From positions 1-32,545 of the forward strand of contig UYFQ01000390.1 in assembly GCA_900617105.1 (NCBI GenBank): a stretch of 32,545 nucleotides of DNA, written 5' to 3'. The notes under the pieces were generated by a model. The model did not search any database. It was given only the letters and a program-made list of their open reading frames with translations, and was not told the DNA's origin. Each line of letters begins with the position of its first letter. Within the stretch, counting starts at the first letter, position 1. The DNA comes from Hydrurus foetidus. Taxonomy: Eukaryota. The position numbers were made by a program, and so were the translations under genes. Shown piece after piece: positions 1,777 through 32,545 of this stretch.

Positions 1777-4700
1777 GTCATTGGGGAATTGGCCCCTACA
1801 GATCTTACTCCTGCGCCTAATCTCCCTCCATACTCCTTCCTAGCTAAACTTCCAGCATCAACTCCATTAGGCTACTGGGACTCAGGCAGCAGCCTCAACG
1901 TCACACCTCACAAATCTCATCTCTACAACATTCAACCTCTCCCCACCCCTTTCTCGTTAGGCGGTGTAAGCGGCTCTTGCCCGGTCACACATTCTGGTTA
2001 TCTTATCTACCTCCCAACCTGCAATAACATGAATCTTGCCTACCTTGCTCCAACCATCCCTGCCACTCTTCTTAGCCTATGCTACATGCAAACTTGCGGA
2101 GCCCATTACTGTCCTGATCCTACTAGCCCTAACACTCACTGTCTTATTTCCTCCTCTGTCAATGGCTTCCTTCTTGACCGGTCCTCCATTACATCCAACA
2201 ACCTACTTCCTATTAATCTCTCATCACTTCGCTCTGCTGCTCTCGCTCATCCAACTCATTACCTCACCCCTCCTGATCCAACGTCATATCTACTCACTTC
2301 AGTTCCCCATACAATTACCCACATCACTGGTGAGCAACGCCGACGTGCAGACCAAGCAGAAGCACTCCATCATGCTTTAGGCCACCCATCAGATGACTCT
2401 CTATTCCTTTGCATTTCAACTGGAAAAATCCCTACGTCACTCGTCCCCTCGGATATCCAACTCAACCGCTCTCTCCGGGGCCACTGCGTCCACTGCGCTG
2501 CTGGCAAGTACAGAGCACCTTCCCGTCCGTCATCAACATCCGCCCCAGCTACTGCTATTGGCCAAACACTATCATTCGATCCTCAGCAACTTCCCAACCC
2601 ATCCCCCGGTGGGTTCACCCACGAGGTCATCATAGTCGATGAGAACTCCGGTTACCTCTCGGTTGTCGGCTCATTCTCCAAATCCACCGCCCATATATTC
2701 AAGGCCATCCACTCAGTAATAACAACTATATATAACGCCTTCGGTCACAAGGTTGAGTCAATGCACAGTGACCCTGAACAAGTCAACAACTCCCTGTCAG
2801 TTCCCCTAGGATCCATCGGCATTAAACTGAAAACCTCCCTTCCCGGCGACCATGCCCATCGAGTAGAGCGCTACATAGAAACCCTACGAGCCATCTCCAG
2901 CGCAATGCTATCGCCCCTCCCATACCATCTTCCCCCCAAGTACTACCTCTACCTCCACCAAGCCGCAGCTGCATCCCGCAACTCCCTCATCTCCACCAAC
3001 AGTTCCATTCCATTCCAGGAAGCACAGCCCTAGTCGTCCAACATATCGACATTCCTTCTCGGCGTCTGCCCGGTCCCCACCTCCCTGTTTCCTCGCCAAC
3101 CGGTCCCCGACGAGCCAGTCCTACCTTCCATGTGTGTTCCATTCCTCCTCCCGTTCCACTCCCATCTCCATCCATCTCACTTCCCATTATGCCTGCCCCC
3201 TCTATCCCCTCGCCCTCAATCACCCACCTCAACTCCCCCATCTACCCCTCCCACAAGCTATTGCCGCTACAACAGCAAACTTGCCAAACCCTTTCCCTAC
3301 TCCACTGCTGGACTCAATCCACACAGCAACCCCCCTGCACCACCCTCCCCCACCTCCTGGCACCCCTCCATCACCACCATCACCCTCATTCCTTTCCATT
3401 CCTTCCACCCATGGATTTACCACTCCCACCAAACCCTCCATCCCCGCCTACGCTTCCACTCGTTCCCTCTGAACTCCCCCATACCCCCTCCCCCCAATTC
3501 AAAACCTGCTTCCCACCAATCCAACGGTCCTCCTTCCGATTTTCAACTCGCGGTTCAAGCTTTCCGCTTATTCAATACTCACGCTTCCTGCCGCTTTTCA
3601 ATGCTCAACAACAACCCCCTCCTCCATCATTCCCACACCCATCCCCGCCCAGAGGACAGAAATGTCCATCGCCCGGGCCTCACGTACCCTCCCCACTTCG
3701 GATATCTCAGCTGCCATATCAAAAGAAACGGACAAACAGTTTACAAAATACGCCAGCCTCCGCCTTGTCCCCCCTCGCACCCCTCTGGAGGCCAGACATG
3801 CCTTCCTGCGCAGTTCAATGTTCATTAAGAGAAAATCAAGCGGCCTCGTCACAGCTCGTCTAGCCATTGACGGTTCTCAACAACCTCCCGACTCATACAC
3901 CGACACCTTTGCAGGCACTTCAGACGTCACTAACCGATCCTTCATCATCGCAGTCGCCCTTGCAGACGCTGCCCATCGTAACATCCTTCCCGAGCTCATT
4001 ATCAGGTCCTACGACATTACTGCCGCATTTCTCCAAAGCTCCCTGCCCCGATCCCACACTGGAGGCTACCAGCTACTCACCACCCTCCCCAAGGATCTAC
4101 CAGACCCTACCCTTGCCGGCAAGACCGCTGAAATTATCGGTGCATGCTATGGTCTCAAGCAAGCCAATTACATCTTCGACACAGAACTAATCGCCCTGCA
4201 CATAGCTGCAGGATTCCTCCCAACACTCTCCGACCACCACACCTTCCGCAAAGTATGTCCGACCAACCCCGCTAACTCCCTCATCATCAACCTTCACGTT
4301 GACGACGGCTTTTATCTGTCAACCTCCCCGTCGCTTCTCGCCGAATATAAAGACCTCCTCACCAACCGATACGGCCCCATCACCTTCGACGACACTTGCA
4401 CCTCGATTTGCGGTATCCACATCACCCGCCACACTGACCACTCCGTCACCCTCGACTACGGCGCCCACATCTCAACCTTCCTTACCAAAGCCGGCATGGA
4501 CCCTCTACCACCAGCCCTTTCCCCGTCCCTCCACCCATTCTTTCAAACCCCCGCTGACCTTACCCCCGTTGATGCAACAGCCTACCAACGCATCAACGGC
4601 TCCCTTCTATTCTACGCCCCCCTCCGCAATTATTGCAGAAAGGAAATCATCCACCTGTGCACACACAATAACGCCCCCACTGCCACACATAGAAGAGACC

Positions 4701-5180
4701 AAATCTAGCTCCTCCGCTACCTCAAAGGTCACCCACATCTCGGCCCCACCTTCACCGCCATCCCGTCTAACCACCCCGACGGTGTAACCCTCTTTGCCTC
4801 TGCTGACGCCTCCCATGCCTGCCATCCCGACGGCTCTAGCCACGCCGCCTACACCCTCAGCGTCGGCCTCAACACAGCTCCCTTCCTTGCCTGCTCGTCG
4901 AAAGAAAAAGGCATTTCGCTCAACCCTTGTGAATCTGAATATAAGACACTCACAAAATGCGCCAAAGACGTCATTTTCTACCGACAATTCGCTACCGACC
5001 TCGGCCATCCGCAAACATCGCCCACTATAATCTATGAAGACAACAAATCCGCTATTAAACTCACTGAAGCTCCAGCCGTCACCCGCAAATCCCGCCACAT
5101 CTTCGTCCAGCATCACTACATCCGGTGGCTCCACCAAGCAAACCACATCACACTCCAGCACCAAGGCACACACGACATTG
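1777..5180 (+). pseudogene. pol: A1 pol (protease, integrase, RT, truncated RNase H)
   Basis: Protease YWDSGSS; integrase HHALGH...CVHC plus FDP/HSDP/VERY; RT YGLKQA and HVDD; RNase H ADASHA/CESEY/YEDN. Stops at 3031-3033 and 4706-4708, with frameshifts or deletions between 3034 and 3660. Confidence 0.92.
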
Positions 5181-5338
5181 TCGTTAGCCAGATCTGCTGA
5201 GCACATAATAATCTAGCTTAACTATTAAGCAAATTCTCGTTCTAAGTCAGATCTTGGACCCTACCCTTCCGGTATCAGTCCAACATTTGCTTAATAGTTA
5301 AGCTAGATTATTATGTGCTCAGCAGATCTGGCTAACGA
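5181..5338. repeat. Perfect 54-bp inverted repeat (5181-5234 / 5285-5338) with a 50-bp spacer; MITE-like or foldback
   Basis: The arms are exact reverse complements. No TSD is visible. Confidence 0.9.
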
Positions 5339-13574: not shown

Positions 13575-13614
13575 TGTCAGTGTGTCACTGCTTCAGTTCC
13601 CCCGACCGTCGCCC
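13575..13614 (+). repeat. A2 5' LTR, first 40 bp
   Basis: Matches 25301-25340 and is interrupted by element B. Confidence 0.93.
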
Positions 13615-13979
13615 TGTCGGAATAACTATGAGTTAAGTAACCGTATAAGTTATTGCGTATGTACATTTGATGACGTTTCGTACGTCGTGTGCCGGGTGGA
13701 GGTCGCTACTCCACCGGTCCAGGTTCCTTTAACCCAGGAAGATCAAAAAGATGAAAGTACACCATGTTTGACTGTGCGGGACAGATCGAATTTGTCGACT
13801 GTCTCCATGAACGTTGTAAGCCATGTTGCATCGTTAATTACCTTAAATCTCACACCAGCAGAGCTTCGTCTTTGAGCCGGGACAAGTTGCTAGCGCACGT
13901 GTTGAAGTTGCAGAAGGAGCGCGTACCCAGGAAGGATTTAGTATTCCGTTAATCGGAAGTAGAGCCAGGAAATACGACA
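13615..13979 (+). repeat. B 5' LTR (365 bp)
   Basis: Direct repeat of 19518-19883 with TG...CA termini. Confidence 0.97.
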
Positions 13980-13990
13980 TAATTAACGAT
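13980..13990 (+). promoter_or_regulatory. B primer-binding-site position, complementary to its own LTR (candidate self-priming PBS)
   Basis: TAATTAACGAT is the reverse complement of ATCGTTAATTA at 13830-13840. No TGG start. Confidence 0.8.
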
Positions 13991-14015
13991 ACCTTTCAGT
14001 GCCAAAAGTTGCAAC

Positions 14016-15111
14016 ATGAAAGGCAAAGGCAGAGAAGCAAAACCTGCGGGTAGAGGCGGAAACCCTGCCAACGGGGGCAGAGGTCATGCCACCCAAGGAA
14101 AGGCTCCACCAAGGACAGGAACGGTAGCCGCGATTGGCGCATTCCTGGACCTTGGAAGAGAGATGAACCATGGTAGCGTAAGCACATGGATGAGAAAGTT
14201 CCGTGAGTATACACGGACAAATTACAAATCGGACATTAGCGAAATCTTTGGAAACGAGGGGATACCTGGGGAGTACCCGCAGTATATCGCCCCTGTGGAT
14301 ATAGCTCGCGATTCCGACTTTATGGTCCAAACGAAATGGAAGCGAGCACTCGAGCTCTTCGATAAAAACGTCATCACCTTGAGAGAAGACAGAAAACAAG
14401 TCTTCGGACTTATGCTGGGACAGATCAGCGAAGCTTCAAAAGCTACAATAAGAGAGACAGAAGCCGGATTAAATGCGATGACAGCGGAGGATCCGTTACT
14501 GTTACTGAGAGCTATCATATTGACTCACCTATCGGACCCGAGGCTGGGAGCAGACCAGAACCTGTTAAGAGTACGAATGGCGTACGAGACGGTTAAAATG
14601 GAACCCAACGACGTGTTGAAGTTCTACTATCAACGGTTCAAAGCGTTGAAAGCCGGGTACGAGGATACCATGCGTGCCTTGGGAGTCATGCCCGAATACA
14701 ACGAGGTCATGACCACCCACAACCACTTACTGACTTCAATCAAGTTCATGAATGGACTGAACTCTGGATACCGACATTACGTGGAATATTAGGCTAAAAG
14801 CCTGGCCGATCAACTTAGAGGAAGCTTACCTAGAGATGGCTAAGGTTACCCCGAAGAAACCGGCCGGAACCGCCCCCCCAAATCAAACGAACGTACTCGC
14901 AGTGAAAAACGCCGGCGGAGAGAAAACTGCTGCGACTGATAAGAAAGGGAAGTCTGACGGGGGTGATGGGAAGAAGGGTACCCGTCCGGGGTACGGTACC
15001 CGATCGGGCAAGTGTAATAAATGCAATCAACCGGGACACTACGGTTATGAGTGTACGGCCACGGATAGCCCAGCGGCTGCACCAGCAGCCAGTGGAAAAT
15101 CTTTAAACTAA
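14016..15111 (+). pseudogene. gag: B gag with one frameshift near 14790
   Basis: ORF 14016-14792 ends GYRHYVEY*. The continuation RLKAWPINLEEAYLEM...CNKCNQPGHYGYEC (CX2CX4HX4C) is in the +1 frame, ending at TAA 15109-15111. Confidence 0.85.
15102..15108 (+). other. Candidate -1 ribosomal frameshift heptamer T TTA AAC
   Basis: X XXY YYZ in the gag frame directly before the gag stop. The -1 frame is open from here into pol. Confidence 0.75.
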
Positions 15112-18100
15112 GTAAGTTACATCACTCCTCACCTGTACACTCACCCACACCCGCACCTGTACATACACCTGCACTTACATTTACACACACACCTACACAC
15201 ACACGTACCGATCCTCCATGTTTGGCTGATTCCACTAGCGGAATTGAAACATGTGATCATATTGTTTTTAGTGCCAATACATGCAATGTATATAACATGA
15301 TTAAGAGTAGACACATACTGCTTGACACATGTGCTGGTGAGTCGGTATTCAACGACTCATCCCTGCTATACAATGTCGAACACGCACCTACACCTATGAT
15401 TGTTAGCGGGGTGAATCCGAAAGGAAAACCGCTAATAATCAAGAAACGTGGGGTGTCGGCGTTCGGCAATGTTTATTATAGCCCTGACTGTGCTGGTAAT
15501 ATATTGTCTTTTGGTAACGCTGTACGTGACTGTACTGATGTTAAGTACTTACATGACTATGATTGTTACATAGTGCAAGATGTCATTGGCCAATATTTTT
15601 ATAGATTCTCGCGAGATGAGTCTACGAATATATACCAATGTGATCTTGACACTATGGTAACTGAGTGCATGCCAATATTAGTTACGACAGTAGAAGAGAA
15701 GAAGAAGAAGTATACAGTAAGAGAGGTCAGAGACGCGTCGTTAGCTAGAGACTATCAGCGTAGACTAGGATACGCTAGCGCAGCACAAACTATTAAGTTG
15801 ATATCCCAAGGGAATTTGACTAATTGTAAAGTGACTGCGCGAGACGTACATAGAGCAATCGATATATGGGGACCGGACGTGGGATCCCTAAAGGGGAAGA
15901 CCACTAGTCACCAGGCTAAGATAGAAGAGAAGTTGCCATTGATAGGAATAGAGTATAAGACCGAACAGATAATGTATATAGACTTAATGTTCGTGAACAG
16001 AGTACCTTACCTAGTCACAGTAGTGCAGCCTATTGAGTTCCTGTATGTAAGCAAGTTAGCTAATAAAGACCATAAGACAATTTGGAATAGCTTGAAGACT
16101 GCATTAGCCAGCATGGTAAAACACAAGTTCAGAGTTAAGATGATTCGAGTAGACGGTGAGGGTGCAATAAACACCGAATGGTTTCACAACAAAGTCGGTT
16201 TAAGAGGTATAGTATTAGACGTTACCGGAGCCGGGGAAGCCGTAGCCGTAGTAGAACGTAAGATCAGACATATCAAAGAGAGAGTCAGATCAGTCATAAA
16301 TTCGTTACCATTTCAGTTAGATGATAAGCTCGAAGTGTGGTTAGTTAAGTATGCAGTCAGTAGAATTGTATTAGCTCCCACACGTAACTCCACCAATCAT
16401 ATCAGCCCTAGAGAGAAATTGACAGGTAGAAAGATAGATATTGATAAGGAGATTAAACATGGATTTGGTGATTATGTACAAGTGCACAATGATGTAATTG
16501 ATAATTCCACCAAACCAAGAACTGCCGGGGCCATAGCACTTATGAGCTCCGGTAATCTAGAAGGTTCATGGTTTTATATGCTGTTAGCAAATGGGCAGAT
16601 AGTTAAGAGAACTAAAGCCACTATATTACCCATGCCTGATGAAGTCATACTGCATTTGAATAAACTTGCATCGACTAGAAAGACTGCCAATGTTAAACAA
16701 CCTGTATTCGAGAGTAGTCACACTGTATTCAATGATGATGATGATTTTGATGATGATGCTGAATATATTGGTGATATCGAATATGATATCATTGACGAAT
16801 CTGCTGTTGCAGAAGAAGTTGATGATAACATTGAAGATAACTTTGTTGACGATACTCCATATGTTGAACCACAACTTGACACATATGATGAAGATCACCC
16901 ACCCACATTAGATGAATATGTAGATGACACACTATATGTGACAGACACTACTGATGATGCTATTCAATATGATGCACATGAGTATACACCTAAGTATGAT
17001 CAAGCTTTAATAGATGATATATTTGGTGTTAGTGATGATGAAGATGATTTTAATGATGTATCTGTACACTCTGAAGTATTCACACCACCTGTTACAATAG
17101 AAACTGAACATGACTCACCTGACACTGATTCACCCGTGTTGCGTAGAAGTGGTAGAAATCACCAACTTGGCAAATGGAATAAGAAGTTTGTTGGTAGTAT
17201 GTTGTATAATCACACCCACCTATACAAAATGACTGTTAATGAAGGAATTACTAAGTTAGGGGTGGTAGCTGTTGATTCCATCACATCTGAACTAAAACAA
17301 ATGTGTGATAAGAATGTATGGGAAGGTGTAACTTATGAATCCCTTACCCCTAAACAAAAACGCACCATTATACCTAGTAGCATGTTTTTAAAAGAAAAGT
17401 ACACTGCTGATGGTATGTTTGAAAAACTGAAATCTAGACTAGTTGCCGGTGGGCACTTACAAGATAGAGATGTTTATAATAATGGCGCATCACCTACTGC
17501 TAGCACATCCAGTGTATTCATACTAACTGCAATTGCTGCTAGACAGAACCGTGCCGTTGCTACTGTTGATTTCCCCGGTGCATTTCTGAATAGTGATATG
17601 CCGCTGACCGGTGACCATGTTGTATACATGCGTTTAAATAAACAACTAACTGCTGCACTAATTAAAATTGATGCAACATATAACAATTATATTAATGACA
17701 ATGGAACATGTATTGTTAAACTTAAGAAAGCATTATATGGATGTGTAGAATCTGCTAAATTATGGTATGACAAACTATCCAGTGATTTGATTAAATTCAA
17801 TTATACTGCTAATGAATATGACATATGTGTGTTCAACCGAATTGAATCCGATAATACACAAACATCACTCGTAATTCATGTTGATGACATGATCATAACT
17901 GCTTCAACTGAATCTCGTGTTGATGATGTTATAAGACAAATTGAAACTATATATCCCGGTCTAACAAAACACAGAGGAAAAGTTTTAAATTACATAGGTA
18001 TGACATTTGACTTCAGCAAGGAAGGAAGTGTCAAGATGACCATGGAAGGCTTCGTGCATGATCTTATTGAGGGGTGCAAAGACATGCCCGGGACGGCAAC

Positions 18101-18956
18101 TACACCCGCACGACCTAACCTATTCACTGTACCTAACGAATCCGACTCACTCTTACCTGATAATCTGCGTGAGCGTTTTCATTCTATTACAGCCAAGCTG
18201 CTCTACCTGAGCAAGAGGACTAGGCCAGACATTCTGACGGCCGTAGCGTTCCTCACCAAGCGAGTGCTTAATCCCCAGAGGGATGACTATGACAAGCTGA
18301 CCCGTACGATACAGTACATACGGGGTAGTCAGCACATGGGTATAACATTTGAACTATATGAACCTATTCATGTTATTGCATATATCGATGCATCCTTTGC
18401 CATACACCCCGATATGAAAAGTCACACAGGCAGCGTAATCACCCTGGGAAAGGGAGCGATCTACGCCAAGAGCGGTACTCAGCGCCTGATGACAAAGTCC
18501 AGCACGGAGGCGGAGTTAGTCGCACTTAGCGACGCTGCCAACCAAGTGCTGTGGACTAGGAACTTCCTGGAACGCCAGGGACATCCCCAACCTCCCGCAT
18601 TAGTGTACCAAGACAATCAGTCTACGATACAGCTGATACGGAACGGACGTTCGAACAGCGAACGTACGCGGCACGTTGATATACGGTATTTTTTCTTGCA
18701 CGACAGGATTACCACTGGCGATGTGGACATCGTATACCTACCTACCACCGACATGATAGCAGACATACTCACTAAGCCACTCCAAGGGGAGTTATTCAAG
18801 AAGCTCAGGAAGGAGCTACTCAACATTATCCCATCTACCCTCACGTACGCAGAAGGCTGCAAGACCGAGGACCGTACGGGCCCAGCACTGGCACCCGTAC
18901 GCACGAGAACCAACCCACGGTTCCCGTATCCTACACCCCACACTCAAAGAAAATAA
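15102..18956 (+). CDS. pol: B pol polyprotein (PR-IN-RT-RH), uninterrupted
   Basis: Protease LLDTCA; integrase YIDL/RVDGE/VERKIR; RT KSRLVAGG, VDFPGAFL, LYG, HVDD; RNase H YIDASF, TEAEL, QDNQS, ADILTK. Acidic linker between IN and RT. Confidence 0.95.
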   Translation, partial: FKLSKLHHSSPVHSPTPAPVHTPALTFTHTPTHTRTDPPCLADSTSGIETCDHIVFSANTCNVYNMIKSRHILLDTCAGESVFNDSSLLYNVEHAPTPMIVSGVNPKGKPLIIKKRGVSAFGNVYYSPDCAGNILSFGNAVRDCTDVKYLHDYDCYIVQDVIGQYFYRFSRDESTNIYQCDLDTMVTECMPILVTTVEEKKKKYTVREVRDASLARDYQRRLGYASAAQTIKLISQGNLTNCKVTARDVHRAIDIWGPDVGSLKGKTTSHQAKIEEKLPLIGIEYKTEQIMYIDLMFVNRVPYLVTVVQPIEFLYVSKLANKDHKTIWNSLKTALASMVKHKFRVKMIRVDGEGAINTEWFHNKVGLRGIVLDVTGAGEAVAVVERKIRHIKERVRSVINSLPFQLDDKLEVWLVKYAVSRIVLAPTRNSTNHISPREKLTGRKIDIDKEIKHGFGDYVQVHNDVIDNSTKPRTAGAIALMSSGNLEGSWFYMLLANGQIVKRTKATILPMPDEVILHLNKLASTRKTANVKQPVFESSHTVFNDDDDFDDDAEYIGDIEYDIIDESAVAEEVDDNIEDNFVDDTPYVEPQLDTYDEDHPPTLDEYVDDTLYVTDTTDDAIQYDAHEYTPKYDQALIDDIFGVSDDEDDFNDVSVHSEVFTPPVTIETEHDSPDTDSPVLRRSGRNHQLGKWNKKFVGSMLYNHTHLYKMTVNEGITKLGVVAVDSITSELKQMCDKNVWEGVTYESLTPKQKRTIIPSSMFLKEKYTADGMFEKLKSRLVAGGHLQDRDVYNNGASPTASTSSVFILTAIAARQNRAVATVDFPGAFLNSDMPLTGDHVVYMRLNKQLTAALIKIDATYNNYINDNGTCIVKLKKALYGCVESAKLWYDKLSSDLIKFNYTANEYDICVFNRIESDNTQTSLVIHVDDMIITASTESRVDDVIRQIETIYPGLTKHRGKVLNYIGMTFDFSKEGSVKMTMEGFVHDLIEGCKDMPGTATTPARPNLFTVPNESDSLLPDNLRERFHSITAKLLYLSKRTRPDILTAVAFLTKRVLNPQRDDYDKLTRTIQYIRGSQHMGITFELYEPIHVIAYIDASFAIHPDMKSHTGSVITLGKGAIYAKSGTQRLMTKSSTEAELVALSDAANQVLWTRNFLERQGHPQPPALVYQDNQSTIQLIRNGRSNSERTRHVDIRYFFLHDRITTGDVDIVYLPTTDMIADILTKPLQGELFKKLRKELLNIIPSTLTYAEGCKTEDRTGPALAPVRTRTNPRFPYPTPHTQRK

Positions 18957-18963
18957 ATGTTTG

Positions 18964-19111
18964 CTGACGAAGACTCAAAGACTCCGTCATTTCTGCTGCC
19001 CATCCCATCCGACTCTACTACCCCATCAGTGCGCATTCTGACGAAGACCCCAAGACTCCATCATTCCTGCTACCCCCTCCATCATTTTCTACTACCCCGT
19101 CAAGTGCGAAT
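18964..19111 (+). repeat. ~74-bp tandem duplication in the B 3' UTR
   Basis: CTGACGAAGAC...AAGACTCC.TCATT.CTGCT.CCC...CTACTACCCC.TCA.GTGCG occurs at 18964 and 19038. Confidence 0.75.
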
Positions 19112-19517
19112 CGAGACCAAGACCGAACACTGAAGACTCCAAGAAAATCCCGACAGAGACATAAAGAGCGAGGAACGTGGACCCAGACCCAAGACCCGAT
19201 TCCGGGATGAGATAGTACCATCAGTCAGAAAATTACTTTTAAGTGCATTCTTTTGCGTGTTACATAAAGTCTTTTTAGTATTGTTTAACTCTATGCTCAT
19301 TCGGATCAGTCAGACCTTATGATACTAATATTACCCTGTGTGTAATAAATTATCTAACGTCACAATTAAAGTCAACCTCACTATTACCCTACTTCCCTAC
19401 ACTACGAAATCATGTCATGATACACCATTTGTGAAACTCCAAGTAAACGGAGTATTTTTGAATTCTATTGCGTTTTCATTCGCGTACACCAACCCGACGA
19501 CTCACGCCATAGGGGTG

Positions 19518-19883
19518 TGTCGGAATAACTAATGAGTTAAGTAACCGTATAAGTTATTGCGTATGTACATTTGATGACGTTTCGTACGTCGTGTGCCGTG
19601 TGGAGGTCGCTACTCCACCGGTCCAGGTTCCTTTAACCCAGGAAGATCAAAAAGATGAAAGTACACCATGTTTGACTGTGCGGGACAGATCGAATTTGTC
19701 GACTGTCTCCATGAACGTTGTAAGCCATGTTGCATCGTTAATTACCTTAAATCTCACACCAGCAGAGCTTCGTCTTTGAGCCGGGACAAGTTGCTAGCGC
19801 ACGTGTTGAAGTTGCAGAAGGAGCGCGTACCCAGGAAGGATTTAGTATTCCGTTAATCGGAAGTAGAGCCAGGAAATACGACA
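19518..19883 (+). repeat. B 3' LTR (366 bp), preceded by a short PPT-like ATAGGGGTG
   Basis: Direct repeat of 13615-13979. Confidence 0.97.
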
Positions 19884-19888
19884 CGCCC

Positions 19889-20115
19889 CCCCCCCCCTCT
19901 TTTCACAACCGCATACATCGACATTTTCATGCACATTCCGTTCGCTCATTTCACTACACGTTAGATGTCTTCCTGTAATTCAATCTCAATGTATCTCAAC
20001 TTCTCTCGATCTATTCACTCAATACCATTCTGCTCACACAATATAAAGCAGTAATCTTTTAAACAATTCTGTTTCTACCGCATCGTCTTACCGACTTCCG
20101 GCCGATTCACTGACA
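19889..20115 (+). repeat. A2 5' LTR, remainder
   Basis: Matches ~25341-25568 and ends CACTGACA. Confidence 0.95.
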
Positions 20116-20129
20116 ATTGTTTAAAAGAT
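20116..20129 (+). promoter_or_regulatory. A2 primer-binding-site position, complementary to its own LTR (candidate self-priming PBS)
   Basis: ATTGTTTAAAAGAT is the reverse complement of ATCTTTTAAACAAT at 20054-20067. The gag ATG follows immediately. Confidence 0.85.
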
Positions 20130-21353
20130 ATGCTTCCTGCTACAGTCCATCCTAGCGCCCCAGCCGCAACAATTCTCGACATTGTCTCAGATAATTGGGC
20201 ACAGTTTAACAAGGCTTTCACCTTGTCTTGCTACACAAAATTTGGAGTCGCGGGTCAGCAAATTCTTTCAAACAAAGAAATCCCACTTACTCCATTCGCT
20301 GTCGCCCCAACCAAATTGGATTTGGATACTAATCTCGCTGGGAGACCAATACCCGGTCAATACACGTATGCTAGACGCACCACAACAGCAGCTGAAGCTG
20401 CACTCCCGGAATTCGACCTCGCAACAATCTCTTTAACTGAATCAGCTAATCGTGAATATCGCGAGGATCTAAAACTCTACACCGCAGCTGCCCGTATCTT
20501 TGCCCTAGAGGACACTGAGTGCCTCGATCATTTACATCGACACATTTCATTACCTTCTCACACGTCAATCAAAACCCATCCGCTCTACACAGCGTACCAA
20601 CTTCTCCCTATAGGCAAACGCAGCTATGCCTTTTATAAAATGGCAAGGGACATACACTCCATCGGCAACGCAACAACCAAATTACACCGTACTCGTCTGT
20701 ACGTCAATATGTCGCAGATCGATCTCACTCACGAACAATATATGGAACAAATCTGCTCTATGGCTGAAACCTTCAACATTGACTTCGAATCTCCAACCTA
20801 CCCCGGCTACGTTCGCCTAAACGAATTTCACAGCTTCATCTATCTCGCAGGCCTAGATCGCACACAATTTCGAAGAGTCATCGATGAAACTCTCCAGACC
20901 AATCCAACTGGTCGCTTTCCAGACCATATCGCCCTCATGGCCCAAATACAAACTTGGAAAGTAGCCAACGCCTTATCTTTTACAAGGGAGGCTATCTCTA
21001 CTCAGGGGTCAGCTCTTATCGCTAAACCATCCCCTTCAACAAAATCAAACAAAAAGGAGCCTACTCAACGTCCACACCTACATCCTTCACCCTGCACATG
21101 GTGCCTATCCGCTGACAAAGTCTCACGGTATGGCCACTTATCATCTCACTGTTCTAAAAACCCCAACCGACTCCCTGGCCCTAGTCCTGCTCCTGTCCCA
21201 CCAACTCCTCGCCCTCCCTCAAACACATCTACTCGTCTCCATGCACTACTAAGCCAGCTCGACACTGCCACCACGCCAAACGATACTAATGCTGCCATGC
21301 TTCTAATTGCTGAAGCAGCTATTGAAGCGTCCGACTATCCCGACAGCGCCTGA
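20130..21353 (+). CDS. gag: A2 gag, 407 aa
   Basis: Located right after the LTR/PBS; similar to A1 gag; C-X2-C-X10-H-X4-C knuckle. Confidence 0.88.
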   Translation: MLPATVHPSAPAATILDIVSDNWAQFNKAFTLSCYTKFGVAGQQILSNKEIPLTPFAVAPTKLDLDTNLAGRPIPGQYTYARRTTTAAEAALPEFDLATISLTESANREYREDLKLYTAAARIFALEDTECLDHLHRHISLPSHTSIKTHPLYTAYQLLPIGKRSYAFYKMARDIHSIGNATTKLHRTRLYVNMSQIDLTHEQYMEQICSMAETFNIDFESPTYPGYVRLNEFHSFIYLAGLDRTQFRRVIDETLQTNPTGRFPDHIALMAQIQTWKVANALSFTREAISTQGSALIAKPSPSTKSNKKEPTQRPHLHPSPCTWCLSADKVSRYGHLSSHCSKNPNRLPGPSPAPVPPTPRPPSNTSTRLHALLSQLDTATTPNDTNAAMLLIAEAAIEASDYPDSA

Positions 21354-24300
21354 CTACCTGTAGTCAACAGCCACACTCTATCCAACATCACACTCGCTTC
21401 ACCTGACCCTCTTGCTCTAACCGCCGACTATGCTCCTACAAATTGCCCATACTCCACCCTTGCTATCCCTTACCCAAGTTCTTTAGCCCTTTCTTCACAA
21501 AGGACTGTCATTATTCCTTCCATCCTCGCACCAACTTACTGGGATAACGCATGCTCATTCCACACAGTCAACGACCTGACCCTGCTATACAATACTTCAA
21601 CCCTACATGCTCCATTCTCTCTGGGTGGCGTCGGTGGAACCTGTCTAGTCACTCATCGTGGTTACCTTCACTGCCTACCCCACAACAACAATATGAACGT
21701 TGCCTACTACGCTCCAACTATACCAGTCAACTTGTTCAGTCTAGGACACCTTCAGCGATGTGGAGCTAGCTACGGCCCAGACCCACTTCGACCCCTCACA
21801 CATGTCTCCGTCTATTCATCAATCTCTGGCCCCCTACTAGCCCATGCTACACTCTCACCAAATAACCTCCTTCTCGTCGACTTCAATGCTCTTAAAATGG
21901 CATCAATCCTGTCCCCCCTACGATACCATCCCTCCTACGCACTAAATGCTACATTCCCAATCCAACATATCAACGCTGAACAGCACGCTCGGGCTGATGC
22001 TGCTGAGCAGCTGCACATCGACCTTTGCCATCCATCGGACAGGAGTCTCTGCTCGAATCTCTCTACTGGCAAACTACCATTCACTACACTAACATGTACT
22101 GACATCACCCTCAACCGTCAACTCCGCGGCCCTTGCCCCCATTGCGCCGCTGGTAAGCACACCAACCCACCACACCCTCCATCAACAAGCCCTCCCGCTA
22201 CATCCATTGGTGAGGTCATCTCAATCGACCCACAGCTCCTTCCAGAACCTTCACCGGGACAACACACACACGAAATAATCCTCGTGGATGAGTTCACCGG
22301 CCACCTCTCTGTCGTTGGTGCCACATCAAAATCAACCCCGGCTGTATTCAAAGCACTACAACACATCATATCCACCACCTTCAACGCAAACCAACACCGC
22401 GTCGGTACAATCCACGGCGATTGCGAAAAGATCAATATCTCTCTCGCTGGCCCCCTTGGCTCGCTCGGCATCAATCTCCATACATCCCCTCCTGGAGAAC
22501 ATGCCGCGCGAGTCGAACGCTATATTCTTATCCTCCGCCAACTGTCCATCGCAATACTCTCAGCACTATCCTACATCCTCCCCTCCAAATATACCCTGTA
22601 TCTCCACAAAGCCATCGCATCGGTCCGAAACTCACTCATCAATTCTCGCAGCTCCCCCTCTACACCCGACGAACTCCTACGAGGTACCAAACCATCCCGT
22701 CGCCAATTCCCCTTCGGAGCCTGTTGCATGGTAACCCAGCACTACGACAAACGTGTTGCCCTTGCCCGTGCACATCAGTCCTCACCTGCCGTCGAAGCTA
22801 AGGCCGAAATCGGTGTCTGTATGGGCCATGATCATATCACTGGCCGAACCCTCTTTCTCCTCGCTAATGGTGCTATCGTACCTCGACGTCCCACATCGCA
22901 ACTACCATCCTCCTATGTCCCATTTAATTGGACCCCTAAAACCTTCGTGATCACCACACCCATTCCCTCTCCAACACAAGACCTCGCATCACCTCTACCC
23001 GCACCTCCCCTCAACTGTGTCGTCCAATTGCCACACGTCCCCCACTCCGACGCTATCGCCACAGTAACCGGTCATATCCCCTCCCCCCTCAACAGCGATC
23101 TTCTCTCCTACATCCGCCAACCACCCTCATTGATCCCTACCTCAACGACAACCCATCCCGGAGAATACACACTTCAAACCTTGATAACTCCATCTACCCC
23201 ACCTCAATCACCTACCACCATTGCCACGGCTATACCCAACGCGGCACCTACAGACCCATCCACTCCTCCAGCCGTGATCGACAACATCACTCATAGCTCA
23301 ATGCTATCCCCACTACCTACACCACCCACCACGCCTACACACATCTCTACACCGGCGCCGCGTCCTTCACGCAATACAGCACACCCACCCAACTTCTGGA
23401 AAGGTGCTTGCGTCAGCTCAGCCCCAAATACCGTACCCCCCAATAATGAACGCATGTCAGCCATCAAAAGAAAACTCTTCCTTTCTCAACAAGCAGCAAT
23501 CCGCAATAGGAACCACCGCCTCCAAAACCCAACACCATACAATAACCGAACCACCAACATTCTGCCTGAGCCTCTCCCCACACGCCGCGCAGAGATGTCG
23601 ATTCGTAAGGCCTCGAACCTATACAACGCCGCCGACATTTCCGCGGGCATCTCCAAGGAACTTTGCAAACACTTCACAACTTACAAATCACTAACACTCC
23701 TACCAAGACACGCCATCGAACCAAATGCAGTATTCATGCGAAGTCAAATCTTCATTTAAAAAAAATCCAATGGTCTCATTACAGCCAGGCTCGCTATTGA
23801 CGGCAGTACACAACCCCGCAAAACCTACAATGACACTTACGCAGGCACTTCTGATACAACAAACCGCGCATTTCTCCTTCAAGCATACATAGCAGATGCC
23901 ACACATCGTGGGTGCCTCGACCAATTACGCATAGGAGATTTTGACTTTCCCGGTGCCTTCCTTCATAATAAATTAACACGCGAAATGACCAATGGTCATC
24001 AGCTCATAGCCAAACTCCCATCGGATCTCCCCAGCCCACTCGCCGGACAACTTGCCGAAATTACCGGGTGCTGCTACGGGATCAAGCAGGCTAATCACGA
24101 GTATGATAAGGATCTAATCAACCTTCTTACCAACGCTGGCTTCATACCTACTGCCTCTGACCCACACTCTTTCCACAAACGCTGCTCTAACAACCCTTCA
24201 GATTCCTTGACCCTAAACATGCATGTTGATGATGGGTGGTACGTTACGTGCTCCGTCCCGCTCCTTGCCGAACTTAAGGCCGTTCTCACAATGCGCTACG

Positions 24301-25199
24301 GCCCCATCGACTTTCACGATGCCTCTAACGGCGTCTGCGGCGTCCGACTTACACGCCACCACGACCACTCTTGCACCCTAGATCAAGGTCCTCATATCAC
24401 CAAATTCCTCCACCGCGCGGGAATGGACCTGGTCCCACCAGCTCTCACACCATCCACGGCCACATTCTTCGACCCCCCCACCGACCTAACACCAGTTGAT
24501 AAAACCCGATTTCTCAGCGTGAATGGCAACCTTGTATTCCTCCTGCCCATACGCCATGATATACGCAAGGAAGTCATCCATCTATGCTCACGCAACTCCA
24601 ACCCTGTGCAGTCCGATCTTACCAAGCAGATACACGTCCTTCGCTATCTCAAAAGCTGTCCTGATCTTGGCCCCACATTCTCCACTAATCCCTCCGCTTA
24701 TCCCAACGGAGTCACAATCACAGCTGCTGCTGATTCCTCCCACGCATGCCATGCCGACGGCCGCAGCCACTCAGCTTATATCATCCGCATTGGACTCAAC
24801 ACCGCACCTTTCGTTACGCACTCAGCATCTGAAACCTCTGCTATTGCACTAAGCCCCTGTGAAGCAGAGTATCTCGCCCTCGGTCGGTGTGCTCAGCATG
24901 TCCTATACTTCAGACAATTCGCGGCCGACATTGGCTTCCCCCAAACCGCACCCACTGTTATCTTTGAAGATAACCAACCCGCTATCAATCTAACAGTCGC
25001 CCCTGGAATCACCCGCAAATCCAGGCACATCGCACTCAAAGAACACTATATTCGCTGGCTCTTCCAATCTAAACAAATCGCACCACAATTTGTGGGAACA
25101 AACGACATGCTCGCTGACGGCCTCACTAAAAGTCTCGCTCCATCAAAGTTCCTCTGGTTTCGCAAGGAACTATTCAATTCACATAATTTACAGAAATAG
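21354..25199 (+). pseudogene. pol: A2 pol, in frame with gag after a TGA; single nonsense TAA at 23757-23759
   Basis: Protease YWDNACS; integrase HIDLCH...CPHC plus IDP/HGD/VERY; RT TARLAIDG, DFPGAFL, YGIKQA, HVDD; RNase H DSSHA, CEAEY, EDNQ, ADGLTK. The TAA replaces the Lys seen in A1 (FIKRKS). Confidence 0.93.
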
Positions 25200-25300
25200 C
25201 CTGCTTCTTTCTATTTTCTATTCAAATACTTTAATCTTTTTTTTTCCTACATCTACACATATCCTCTCCATAATTCGCATATATATAGCTTACCGGCGCA

Positions 25301-25568
25301 TGTCAGTGTATCACTGCTTCAGTTCCCCCGACCGTCGCCTCCCCCCCCCCTCTTTTCACAACCGCATACATCGACATTTTCATGCACATTCCGTTCGCTC
25401 ATTTCACTACACGTTAGATGTCTTCCTGTAATTCAATCTCAATGTATCTCAACTTCTCTCGATCTATTCACTCGATACCATTCTGCTCACACAATATAAA
25501 GCAGTAATCTTTTAAACAATTCTGTTTCTACCGCATCGTCTTACCGACTTCCGGCCGATTCACTGACA
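25301..25568 (+). repeat. A2 3' LTR (268 bp)
   Basis: About 4 differences from the reconstructed 5' LTR; 8-bp terminal inverted repeat. Confidence 0.96.
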
Positions 25569-29969: not shown

Positions 29970-32545
29970 TAGGGCTGGTGTCCGACTCCAAAAGTGAAGT
30001 CGGACCGGACAGTCGGACATCCACTGAAATGTCGGACGGACAGTCCGACATTCTCGGACAAATTGAGATAATCGGAGTCGGACGGAAGTCGGACAAAAGT
30101 CGGACGGAAGAGGTACGGAAGTCGGACAGATAACGTTTGGAAGTCGGACAGACGGACACTTTTTTTAATTTCTCTCTCGCATTCCTCAGCCAGCGGCCAA
30201 CTGTCGTGCAGGACTATCAGATCGGAAGCATGCTGTGGCTGAATAGAGGTGCGACAGAGAAAACGCGCTCGGAAGGTGCAGAAGTGGCAGGTATGCAGAG
30301 GATTCTACGAGCTAAAATGGCAGTGTGCATGATTGGCAGGCCTTTCATGGCTTTGTAACAATCAAGTTCGAGGGAAACGGTAATGTCGATTTCGTCATCG
30401 GCAACAGCGCTCTCGTCATCATCTCCGATACCTTCGAAGAGAGCTGTCAGTGGCCTCGCGACATCCTTTGAAGGTGCAACAACGGCATCTAAATTTGCAA
30501 ATTGGGCTTTTCTGGTTCTTATTTCGTCGGTGATTTTGCGCATCAAGGACTTAATCTGATCCCAGATTTTAATTCTGTCCAGGACTCCAATGTACTTCAA
30601 AGACTTTGAGCGGGGATCCAAGGCTGCGGCCAACAAGCTCGTTCGTGGGAATCCTTTTTGTCTGTTTGATCTGCCAGGTACCTCGTTTTCATCATACAGA
30701 GTATTCACTTCACCCTTGCCCCAGTAAGTGTTTAGTCCCTTAATCTTGTGATTCAGCATTTCATTTGCGAGTGTCCTCACGACGTCTGAGCGAGCGTTCT
30801 CACATTTGTCCTCCAACTTTTGTCTGACAACAGTGATGAGGTATGGGGCGAAGGGAAGAGTCGCGTACTTCTGACCCTCCAGGAACTGTTGGATCAGCAT
30901 GAAAGGTTCGAGCAACTCCTCTATATCCTCCAGCATGCTCCACTCAGTTCCAGTTAGATTCAACTCATCCTCGATAACTCCCTCAATAACTAATAATCCA
31001 AAGTATAATTTCAACTCTCGCAATCGCTTCACAAACTTCCATGTCGACCACCACCTTGTAGGACAGTCGTTGACGACTTTCTTCGGCTTCGTGTTGCTTC
31101 CGCGAGTCTGAATTGCTGCTAAGGACTCACTAGCTTGTACACTTGATTTGAAATGTCCTACGAGAGCTCGTGCACGTCTCATGAGATCCGGCGACGGTGA
31201 AGGCCAGCCCCTGCAAAAATCGGACCAACGACCGTGAGTGTACGACGCTACTGCTTGACGATCTAGGCTTTAACCTTCACACAGATGGTGTAAAAATGTT
31301 AAAAAACACTCACCGTAGTCAGCTCCATAACGTGATTTACATAGTAGTGGTGGGGGACTCCGTTGGGCAGCTGTTTACCAAAAGCACCCATTACTGGCGC
31401 TGTATCTGTCACTACGCAGACCATATTACGGATATCCAAATCAAATGCTGTCCATGCATTGGTGAGCTCCCTGATAATGTCACCAGCTTTCGAACCACCA
31501 GCATGTTCTTCACAGCCCAGTGTAAACGACCTCATCTGCCACGTGTCACTAATGTAGTGACATGTCACTCCTAGATAGTTAGTGCCAGCCAGAGATGTCC
31601 AGTGATCACAAGTCAGTGCGAAGTGTTTTTCCATCATCTCCGACTTCAATGTAGTTCTGACTCTACTCGCTTGTTCGCCTATGACACTGACGACCTTGTG
31701 GCGATCAAAGAATTGGACCTTTGGGTTCAATTCAGAACACATCCTCCTGAAGTGTTTGTTTTCGCATGTGTTGATAGGTTGGTAGGTGAACACGATCCAC
31801 TTTAAGAAGCTTTGGGAGAAATTGCCTCCATATGTAACATAATCCGCTATTTTTTCTCCCCTCTTGACTGATGCATCCGCTGCGGTAGCGTTCCGTGTTT
31901 GAATAATTTGTTGATGTCACTTCTCAATATGACGAGACAAAGTCGTTGTGCACGAATCCTAAAAAGATTATAATTGATTAATTGATTAAGGGATGCAATT
32001 TGAAGAGTACCGACGTTGCGTAATTTGTACCTTGTATTCAACAGTGAAATTGATGCTTTTGTCACTCTCAGCAGCTAGACGGCAAATGTTACATGACACC
32101 ACACCTTTCTTGTCAGGATGCGTCAAAATATTGAATTTGTGGAAGTGATCCCACACCCAAGAAGTTGACTTCGATGGAATCAATGTGATAACTGAAGAAT
32201 CAACACGGGTCGATGGCGCATTTATTCCATAAAAGTTGTGTCTATTATCTCTAACAGTTGTAGTCTGCTTTCTTGCTTTCTTGCTTTCTTGTTGTCCGGC
32301 TTTTTGGTCGATGTGCTAAAGGACGAATTTGAGATAGATGATGTTGATGAGCAACTGCCATACTGAAGTGCCAGCGCCCGATTTTCGGCAGTTATAGAGT
32401 TCTCTTCTTCGTAATCTTCCCAGTCATCTGCACTCCTTTTTCTACTCGGTAGAGAGTTGTCTGTAACTGCACTAGCCATCTCTGCTGCGAAACTGCGGTT
32501 CCGAATTGTGATAGCGTCGTCAGAACTTATTCAAAGGTCCTAAGA
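29970..32545 (-). mobile_element. hAT DNA transposon (3' end at 29970; 5' end outside the window)
   Basis: Terminus TAGGGCTGGTGTCCG is followed by an array of TCGGAC/GTCCGA subterminal motifs (29980-30160), next to a hAT transposase. Confidence 0.85.
30217..32479 (-). pseudogene. hAT transposase, probably defective
   Basis: BED finger SWVWDHF...CNIC; TCDHWTS; VTDTA; TRWWST; LDPR; LCIPATSAPSERVFS. CxxH reads YVNH, the frame slips after the putative intron 31313-31211, and the dimerisation domain looks internally deleted. Confidence 0.87.

Follow-up and report, generated by a model that had tools for sequence, protein, structure and literature searches.

The 32,545-nt stretch of Hydrurus foetidus DNA analysed here (contig UYFQ01000390.1, hereafter the window) contains a Ty1/copia retrotransposon with long terminal repeats (LTRs), element B, on the forward strand at 13615-19883. 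Its pol is read in the -1 frame relative to the end of gag, which raises the question of how a Gag-Pol fusion could be made. A sequence-only reading had proposed that ribosomes slip on a U_UUA_AAC heptamer at the end of gag. This interpretation is backed at the level of the family and of the clade by a distant relative with a readable junction (locus L002), by covariation at the heptamer, by the C-terminal residues of related Gags and by a branch of 65 pol sequences. Intact copies of the family probably make Gag-Pol by -1 ribosomal frameshifting at an X_XXA_AAC heptamer abutting the gag stop.

The gag/pol junction

Rereading of the sequence placed TCT TTA AAC TAA at 15100-15111, with the slippery heptamer U_UUA_AAC (15102..15108) in the phase X_XXY_YYZ. 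It is abutted by the gag stop UAA (15109..15111), a candidate pause, and 3′ of this lies a donor-like GTAAGT motif (15112..15117). The -1 frame reads FKLSKLHHSS...DPPCLADS as previously described and is open from 15069 to 18953. Pol (15102..18956) comprises a linker, protease, integrase, reverse transcriptase (RT) and RNase H, and is 1295 codons long from stop to stop, 1284 from the heptamer and 1219 from the first ATG at 15297; the 1244 codons given earlier are recovered by counting from a TTG at 15222. The first pol ATG does lie just before the protease, 9 codons ahead of its Asp codon at 15324, and falls 3′ of a V/I-F-S motif conserved in the closest relatives. An in-phase X_XXY_YYZ heptamer at the end of the first open reading frame (ORF) and a second ORF open in -1 are canonical features of programmed frameshifting by ribosomes in the -1 direction (-1 PRF), and both are present in the assembly. 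A further one, conservation of the signal across relatives, appears to hold as well, judged mostly from protein ends.

Under frameshifting most ribosomes would terminate at the UAA, releasing Gag. In a minority the tRNA-Asn would shift from AAC onto AAA while the upstream tRNA pairs anew at 2-3 positions; having slipped one base back, these ribosomes would continue into protease, integrase and RT, giving the predicted junction ...GKSLN-LSKLHHSS.... The pause is predicted to come from slow termination at the abutting UAA and not from downstream structure. The window contains a single copy of the 10-mer formed by heptamer and stop, where chance would give 0.15, and 15 of 100 shuffles contain at least one. 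Therefore a single copy proves little by itself, and the weight of the argument comes from relatives.

An interrupted gag in the assembled copy

The claim that gag itself ends in TCT TTA AAC TAA fails for this copy. The ORF that begins at ATG 14016 encodes 258 amino acids (14016..14792) and runs into a premature TAG at 14790-14792, 310 nt upstream of the slippery site. The C-terminal part of gag (14791..15111), with a CCHC zinc knuckle and tail, is in the slip-site frame and ends at the UAA, out of frame with the ATG. The TAG is encountered because 8 bases carried by sister copies are absent; the extra bases are present at 14790 in sister contigs of four sequencing runs (X1, X4, X5, X6), and homologous full-length Gags of about 370 amino acids read across this point. 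The C-terminal part is 83% identical to residues 262-372 of protein P0117 and matches the Pfam zinc-knuckle-region profiles PF13917 (E 2e-5, below the curated cut-off) and PF00098 (E 4e-4, at the cut-off). Either this copy is truly damaged here or the assembly is wrong at this point. With gag ending early, the slip site of this copy would therefore be unreachable and silent.

Conservation of the junction among relatives

Near-identical short-read contigs span the heptamer and the stop gap-free (X4 record 9, X5 record 9, X6 record 20); these contig comparisons cover the sequence on either side of the repeat at 15135-15208. In diverged contigs aligned at 80% likeness (one from X6, two from X16), both 15102 and 15103 are changed from T to G. 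Two such contigs, X6 record 22 and X16 record 3, align gap-free through 15134 at about 80% identity. Together with Gag proteins that end in V-N, the double change points to a G_GUA_AAC heptamer, given an unchanged 15104.

The only other junction readable as DNA is that of L002, which is 39% identical to element B in the protease-integrase (PR-INT) region. Here gag ends with A_AAA_AAC followed by one codon and UAA, and pol is again in -1; there is no repeat between the two genes, and the protease region contains an in-frame stop. A metagenome scan returned at least 5 loci, namely L002 as the one split element, two fused elements, one degraded element and one without a junction. A genome scan added 27 more distant loci, of which the 15 examined were single-ORF, partial or degraded and showed no clean split junction. 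Scans of viral contigs and a first genome scan gave no matches, and searches of 5 source genomes gave no usable junction. Copia-type pol was also seen on contigs filed within bacterial metagenome-assembled genomes (L006-L032), which are probably eukaryotic contamination.

Protein ends extend the comparison. Close relatives of the Gag provided 49 distinct tails from 70 proteins, of which 28 end in x-N and 18 in G-K. The residue before Asn is V in 21 of the 28, A in 3, P in 2, G in 1 and S in 1. U_UUA_AAC would thus be a rare form in the close family, the prevailing V-N again pointing to G_GUA_AAC.

More distant Gags were collected by a profile search of 50%-identity cluster representatives, which listed 150 matches (3 over 600 amino acids). 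For the tail test 76 were dropped, 72 lacking a zinc knuckle, three with tails over 120 amino acids and one with a tail under 8, leaving 74 zinc-knuckle Gags whose tails measure 8-120 amino acids. An X_XXY_YYZ-compatible tripeptide ends 34 of the 74, against 7.7 expected and a maximum of 16 in 1000 local shuffles of the last 12 residues. Allowing the listed exceptions to the heptamer rule raises the count to 39/74, and allowing one extra codon gives 44/74 (13.8 expected). Asn is terminal in 29/74, compared with 7% locally. As a control, only 2 of 95 pol C-termini have a heptamer-compatible ending (21 of 116 were dropped for lacking an RNase H end). Moreover, the endings switch jointly as the nucleotide rule predicts, with Q-K-N, T-K-N, S-G-N, K-G-K, N-P-N, N-L-N and S-V-N all represented; compatibility of residue -3 (39 of 40 cases, 33 expected) adds modestly to this. 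One member of the distant set, P0261, is the Gag of L002, where the DNA confirms what the protein end implies.

Pol proteins were compared separately. The 116 homologues fall into two sizes, both admitted by the length window of the search: about 1200 amino acids (pol only) and about 1500-1800 amino acids (fused). A quick IQ-TREE of 113 PR-INT regions (17 of 129 candidates with coverage under 80% left out; midpoint root, SH-aLRT support and no bootstrap) puts element B and L002 in a branch of 65 rows with SH-aLRT 100. All 65 are unfused to gag, compared with 41 of the 48 rows outside that are fused; the labels derive from gene calls, and a truncated ORF may carry the wrong one, as does P0055 outside the branch. 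The split between gag and pol is, as far as these gene calls and sequences go, a clade trait. The only named host among the relatives is a chrysophyte, in a cluster of a distant fused element. The sequence-only reading had proposed checking other copies for the heptamer and the stop, and had named a fused ORF or loss of the heptamer as counter-evidence. Neither was seen, with 0/65 clade members fused, and the site stays of slippery type; the heptamer sequence itself varies.

RNA around the slip site

The canonical -1 PRF cassette includes a stimulatory stem-loop or pseudoknot 5-9 nt downstream, and no stem-loop was found by folding in element B (z -0.03, -0.4). The region is as poor in G as first noted, with 11 G in 114 nt (15112-15225) and 4 G in the 83 nt of 15121-15203. 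This C/A-rich tract (15121..15204, 45% C) consists of degenerate 12-nt repeats and encodes a His/Thr/Pro linker in the pol frame, a peptide that differs among the closest pol relatives. The absence of an obvious hairpin was borne out, 15109-15210 folding at -6.7 kcal/mol against -5.7 kcal/mol when shuffled (z -0.4); the folding covered nested pairing, and for a pseudoknot the tract has too few G. A scan for long-range duplexes, made with no shuffle control, found no outstanding partner. The 6 bases after the gag stop are able to pair with 15173-15178.

A small hairpin is predicted 5′ of the slip site (15070..15095, -16.5 kcal/mol, z -3.2). We did not count it, as its window was picked post hoc and a variant at 15071 breaks an outer pair; it may be a by-product of Ala codons.

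Downstream RNA is visible in two elements, B and L002, and that of L002 forms, 17 nt on, a hairpin that is predicted to be weak (-12.4 kcal/mol, z -1.3). What the elements share is a stop 0 or 1 codon from the heptamer, and for this reason the best candidate for the stimulator is a termination pause at the adjacent gag stop, a plausible though tentative proposal to which the comparison lends some support. In Rous sarcoma virus, too, the stop directly follows the heptamer, there with a pseudoknot. If the stop is not the stimulator, slippage at a basal rate, a protein bound to the RNA or some distant structure could be responsible, and the short gag/pol overlaps may reflect mere selection for a fixed Gag end.

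Weighing the alternatives

Several observations weigh against frameshifting as set out above or narrow its base. The copy in the window is defective in gag, and ribosomes on it as assembled would never reach the slip site. The length of the repeat at 15135-15208, and with it the phase of this copy, is as given by the assembly, and an indel there could alter that phase, and the 0 frame remains open for 62 codons past the UAA. Whole junctions are available as DNA for the window and L002 only; the others are deduced from the ends of proteins, which do not fix the codons. Bases 15104-15111 of the diverged copies are not readable among the matches listed, and one X5 contig is altered at 15102 alone. 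Four close-family tails (A-N 3, S-N 1) match the heptamer poorly at the P site, and in 30 of the 74 distant Gags the canonical signature is missing both at offset 0 and at offset 1. Gag tails are rich in K and G and kinship among the sequences inflates the counts, whilst the Gag set is tied directly to the pol branch only through B and L002. Nearly all high-level frameshifting requires a stimulator, according to the available part of PMC5009743, and the codon between heptamer and stop in L002, with its weak hairpin, disfavours the stop as the only one. Lastly, neither of two RNA runs (X21 and X22, with 48 and 40 reads) has reads over 14206-16963, nor any on 14600-15600 at 80% likeness; these runs are no evidence either way on splicing.

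Could gag and pol truly share a frame with a readthrough stop between them, the -1 offset being an indel in the C/A repeat? The open 0 frame and the assembly-dependent repeat leave room for this, other indels relative to sister copies occur in the window (13627, 14790), and the neighbouring elements A and C do have gag, stop and pol in frame. However, L002 is in -1 without any repeat, and under readthrough neither the covariation of the heptamer nor the Gag tail signature would serve any purpose. UAA is also the least leaky of the stop codons. We regard readthrough as very unlikely. The offset as decay of a former single ORF, or as one bridged by polymerase slippage or correction at the RNA level, would fit with the mostly single-ORF relatives outside the branch and with the real gag lesion of this copy. 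Yet all rows of the branch are unfused, Gag ends are fixed in place with a recurrent signature, the LTRs are almost identical and pol is intact over its 1284 codons; for slippage of a polymerase, the longest homopolymer run at the site is three bases. This is the most improbable of the explanations considered.

The sequence-only reading had raised a spliced pol mRNA and pointed to GTAAGT. A gag-pol fusion by this route can be rejected: the donor is 3′ of the stop, therefore splicing keeps the UAA and cannot fuse gag to pol. Pol might instead be translated separately from a spliced or internally initiated mRNA, in the manner of foamy viruses, starting at ATG 15297 or TTG 15222. Across elements A, B and C the perfect GTAAGT at 15112 is the one found on the sense strand (11 others are antisense), candidate AG acceptors lie at 15237 and 15270, and the junction of Tca2, placed in a yeast reporter, caused pol to be initiated anew (PMC2194720). 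Against separate translation, ATG 15297 is unconserved and 3′ of a conserved motif, predicted starts are scattered among relatives, 26 ATGs intervene between the presumed transcript start and ATG 15297, no comparable donor follows the gag stop of L002, and the heptamer signature is left unexplained. We consider it unlikely; the donor could nevertheless yield a gag-only RNA. A further alternative keeps the frameshift and changes its stimulator to a protein on the C-rich tract or to distant pairing. The tract is unstructured and rich in C, the six post-stop bases have a potential partner, and in arterivirus frameshifting the stimulus comes from nsp1-beta acting together with poly(C)-binding protein (PMC5009743). 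On the other side stand the variable linker peptide of the closest pol relatives, the absence of the tract from L002, a local fold no better than shuffles and the lack of an outstanding partner in the uncontrolled long-range scan. This variant, which shares in the probability of frameshifting itself, is possible but rather unlikely. Taken together, the evidence favours -1 frameshifting at the heptamer in intact copies.

Element B and its neighbours

A recent Ty1/copia insertion, element B was delimited by comparison of its LTR pair. The 5′ LTR (13615..13979, 365 nt, TG...CA) and the 3′ LTR (19518..19883, 366 nt) agree at 364 of 365 aligned bases with 1 indel. A 5-bp target-site duplication flanks the element, whose TG...CA termini are typical of Ty1/copia. 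It sits in the 5′ LTR of element C, and the flanks on both sides match the 3′ LTR of C; in this nested arrangement (13575-25568) the insertion point is at a C-rich run. The RT was placed by a Pfam match of pol to RVT_2 (E 2e-21, residues 760-1002). Protease, integrase and RNase H carry no Pfam match and were placed by motifs in the translation that we take to mark them, giving the protease-integrase-RT-RNase H order of the copia type. The sequencing runs that contain element B include freshwater and sediment metagenomes. The host is presumably a freshwater stramenopile. In runs X4 and X5 the summed contig depth over 13615-19510 is much greater on pol and the LTR than on gag, which suggests many related families whose pol is shared more closely than their gag; depth here is not copy number.

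By eye, no TGG-type tRNA primer site was seen in element B. The primer-binding position (13980..13990) is instead a candidate self-priming site, its 11 nt being complementary to 13830-13840 of the element's own LTR. The bases after the 5′ LTR likewise perfectly complement an LTR-internal stretch over 15 nt in element C, 16 in L005, 17 in L009 and L011, and 9 in L002. No such stretch was seen in L004, L020, L023, L027 or L034, some of which are without the needed flank. In element C the stretch is 20115-20129, which complements its own LTR just after a TATA-like box; L009 and L011 are near-identical elements. The arrangement is the geometry of Tf1-type self-priming, which was predicted earlier for the plant TAR copia in the portion available of PMC6317226.

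Elements A and C each have gag, a single stop (1774-1776 and 21351-21353, respectively) and pol in the same frame. The stop of one is TAG and that of the other TGA followed by CTA. TGA followed by CTA is a readthrough context. The neighbouring copia families therefore seem to use different recoding. Element C carries its own 5-bp target-site duplication. Pol is interrupted by in-frame stops or frame breaks in both C (23757-23759) and A (3031-3033, 4706-4708); the one in C coincides with a run of A and is perhaps due to faulty assembly. Upstream of the gag of A, at about 555-600 and beside a terminal GATTTT array, there is by eye a short stretch resembling the LTR of the B family, and the end of the pol of A carries a perfect inverted repeat whose 54-nt arms stand 50 nt apart (5181-5338). 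At 30217-31916, on the minus strand, two ORFs resemble by eye pieces of a hAT-type DNA transposase.

Comparison with known systems

The sources cited here were available in part, and what follows is limited to those parts. The copia strategies they cover are a single ORF, a +1 shift, an in-frame stop and splicing. Ty1, Ty2 and Ty4 use a +1 frameshift, as do split plant elements including sireviruses (PMC5009743), whilst splicing is used by Drosophila copia and an in-frame stop by Tca2 (PMC2194720). Ty1/Ty2/Ty4 (+1), Tca2 and SIRE1 (stop codons) and copia (splicing) all make less Pol than Gag, as element B would. They differ from it in direction and signal, and none shifts by -1 on a tandem-slip heptamer (PMC5009743, PMC2194720). 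Also comparable are the CoDi Ty1/copia elements of diatoms (Maumus et al. 2009); in most of those selected, gag and pol are separated by at most one stop or frameshift (PMC2806351). They resemble element B in copia domain order, TG/CA LTRs and an aquatic microbial setting, and differ in that the direction, signal and mechanism of the shift are unstated there; the comparison is one of description (PMC2806351). A 2003 recoding survey (Gao et al., via PMC5009743) assigned pol to the -1 frame in 28 of the 51 retroelements it covered from animals; heptamers are present in many of these, and their superfamily is unstated. Our literature search brought up no copia element for which a -1 heptamer has been described; the 2003 survey, known here through PMC5009743, could contain one. 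The family carries a conserved signal of a known recoding type in a group for which the literature searched held no description.

The heptamers themselves are of recognised kinds. U_UUA_AAC, A_AAA_AAC and G_GGA_AAC are among the shiftiest, and G_GU and G_UU(A) are listed as natural exceptions to X_XXY_YYZ (PMC5009743). More speculatively, a copia clade of aquatic protists might use a structure-free -1 shift in which the stop abutting the heptamer is the stimulator and release-factor kinetics set the ratio of Gag to Gag-Pol. If so, the loose P-site pairing of G_GUA and G_GCA would be tolerated by a stop-driven shift. The dozens of natural heptamer variants beside a stop offer a panel on which to test if useful -1 slippage of eukaryotic ribosomes can be driven by nothing more than a stop codon. 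The clade would have gone from one ORF to a -1 frameshift, and annotations that make such elements look broken or pol-only would need correction, as they are probably intact. Element B is like the -1 PRF systems of retroviruses, totiviruses and coronaviruses in its X_XXY_YYZ heptamer and in the control of a Gag/Gag-Pol type ratio (PMC5009743). It is unlike them in having no predicted 3′ stem-loop or pseudoknot, and in the place of the stop, which across its clade comes directly after the heptamer or after one further codon.

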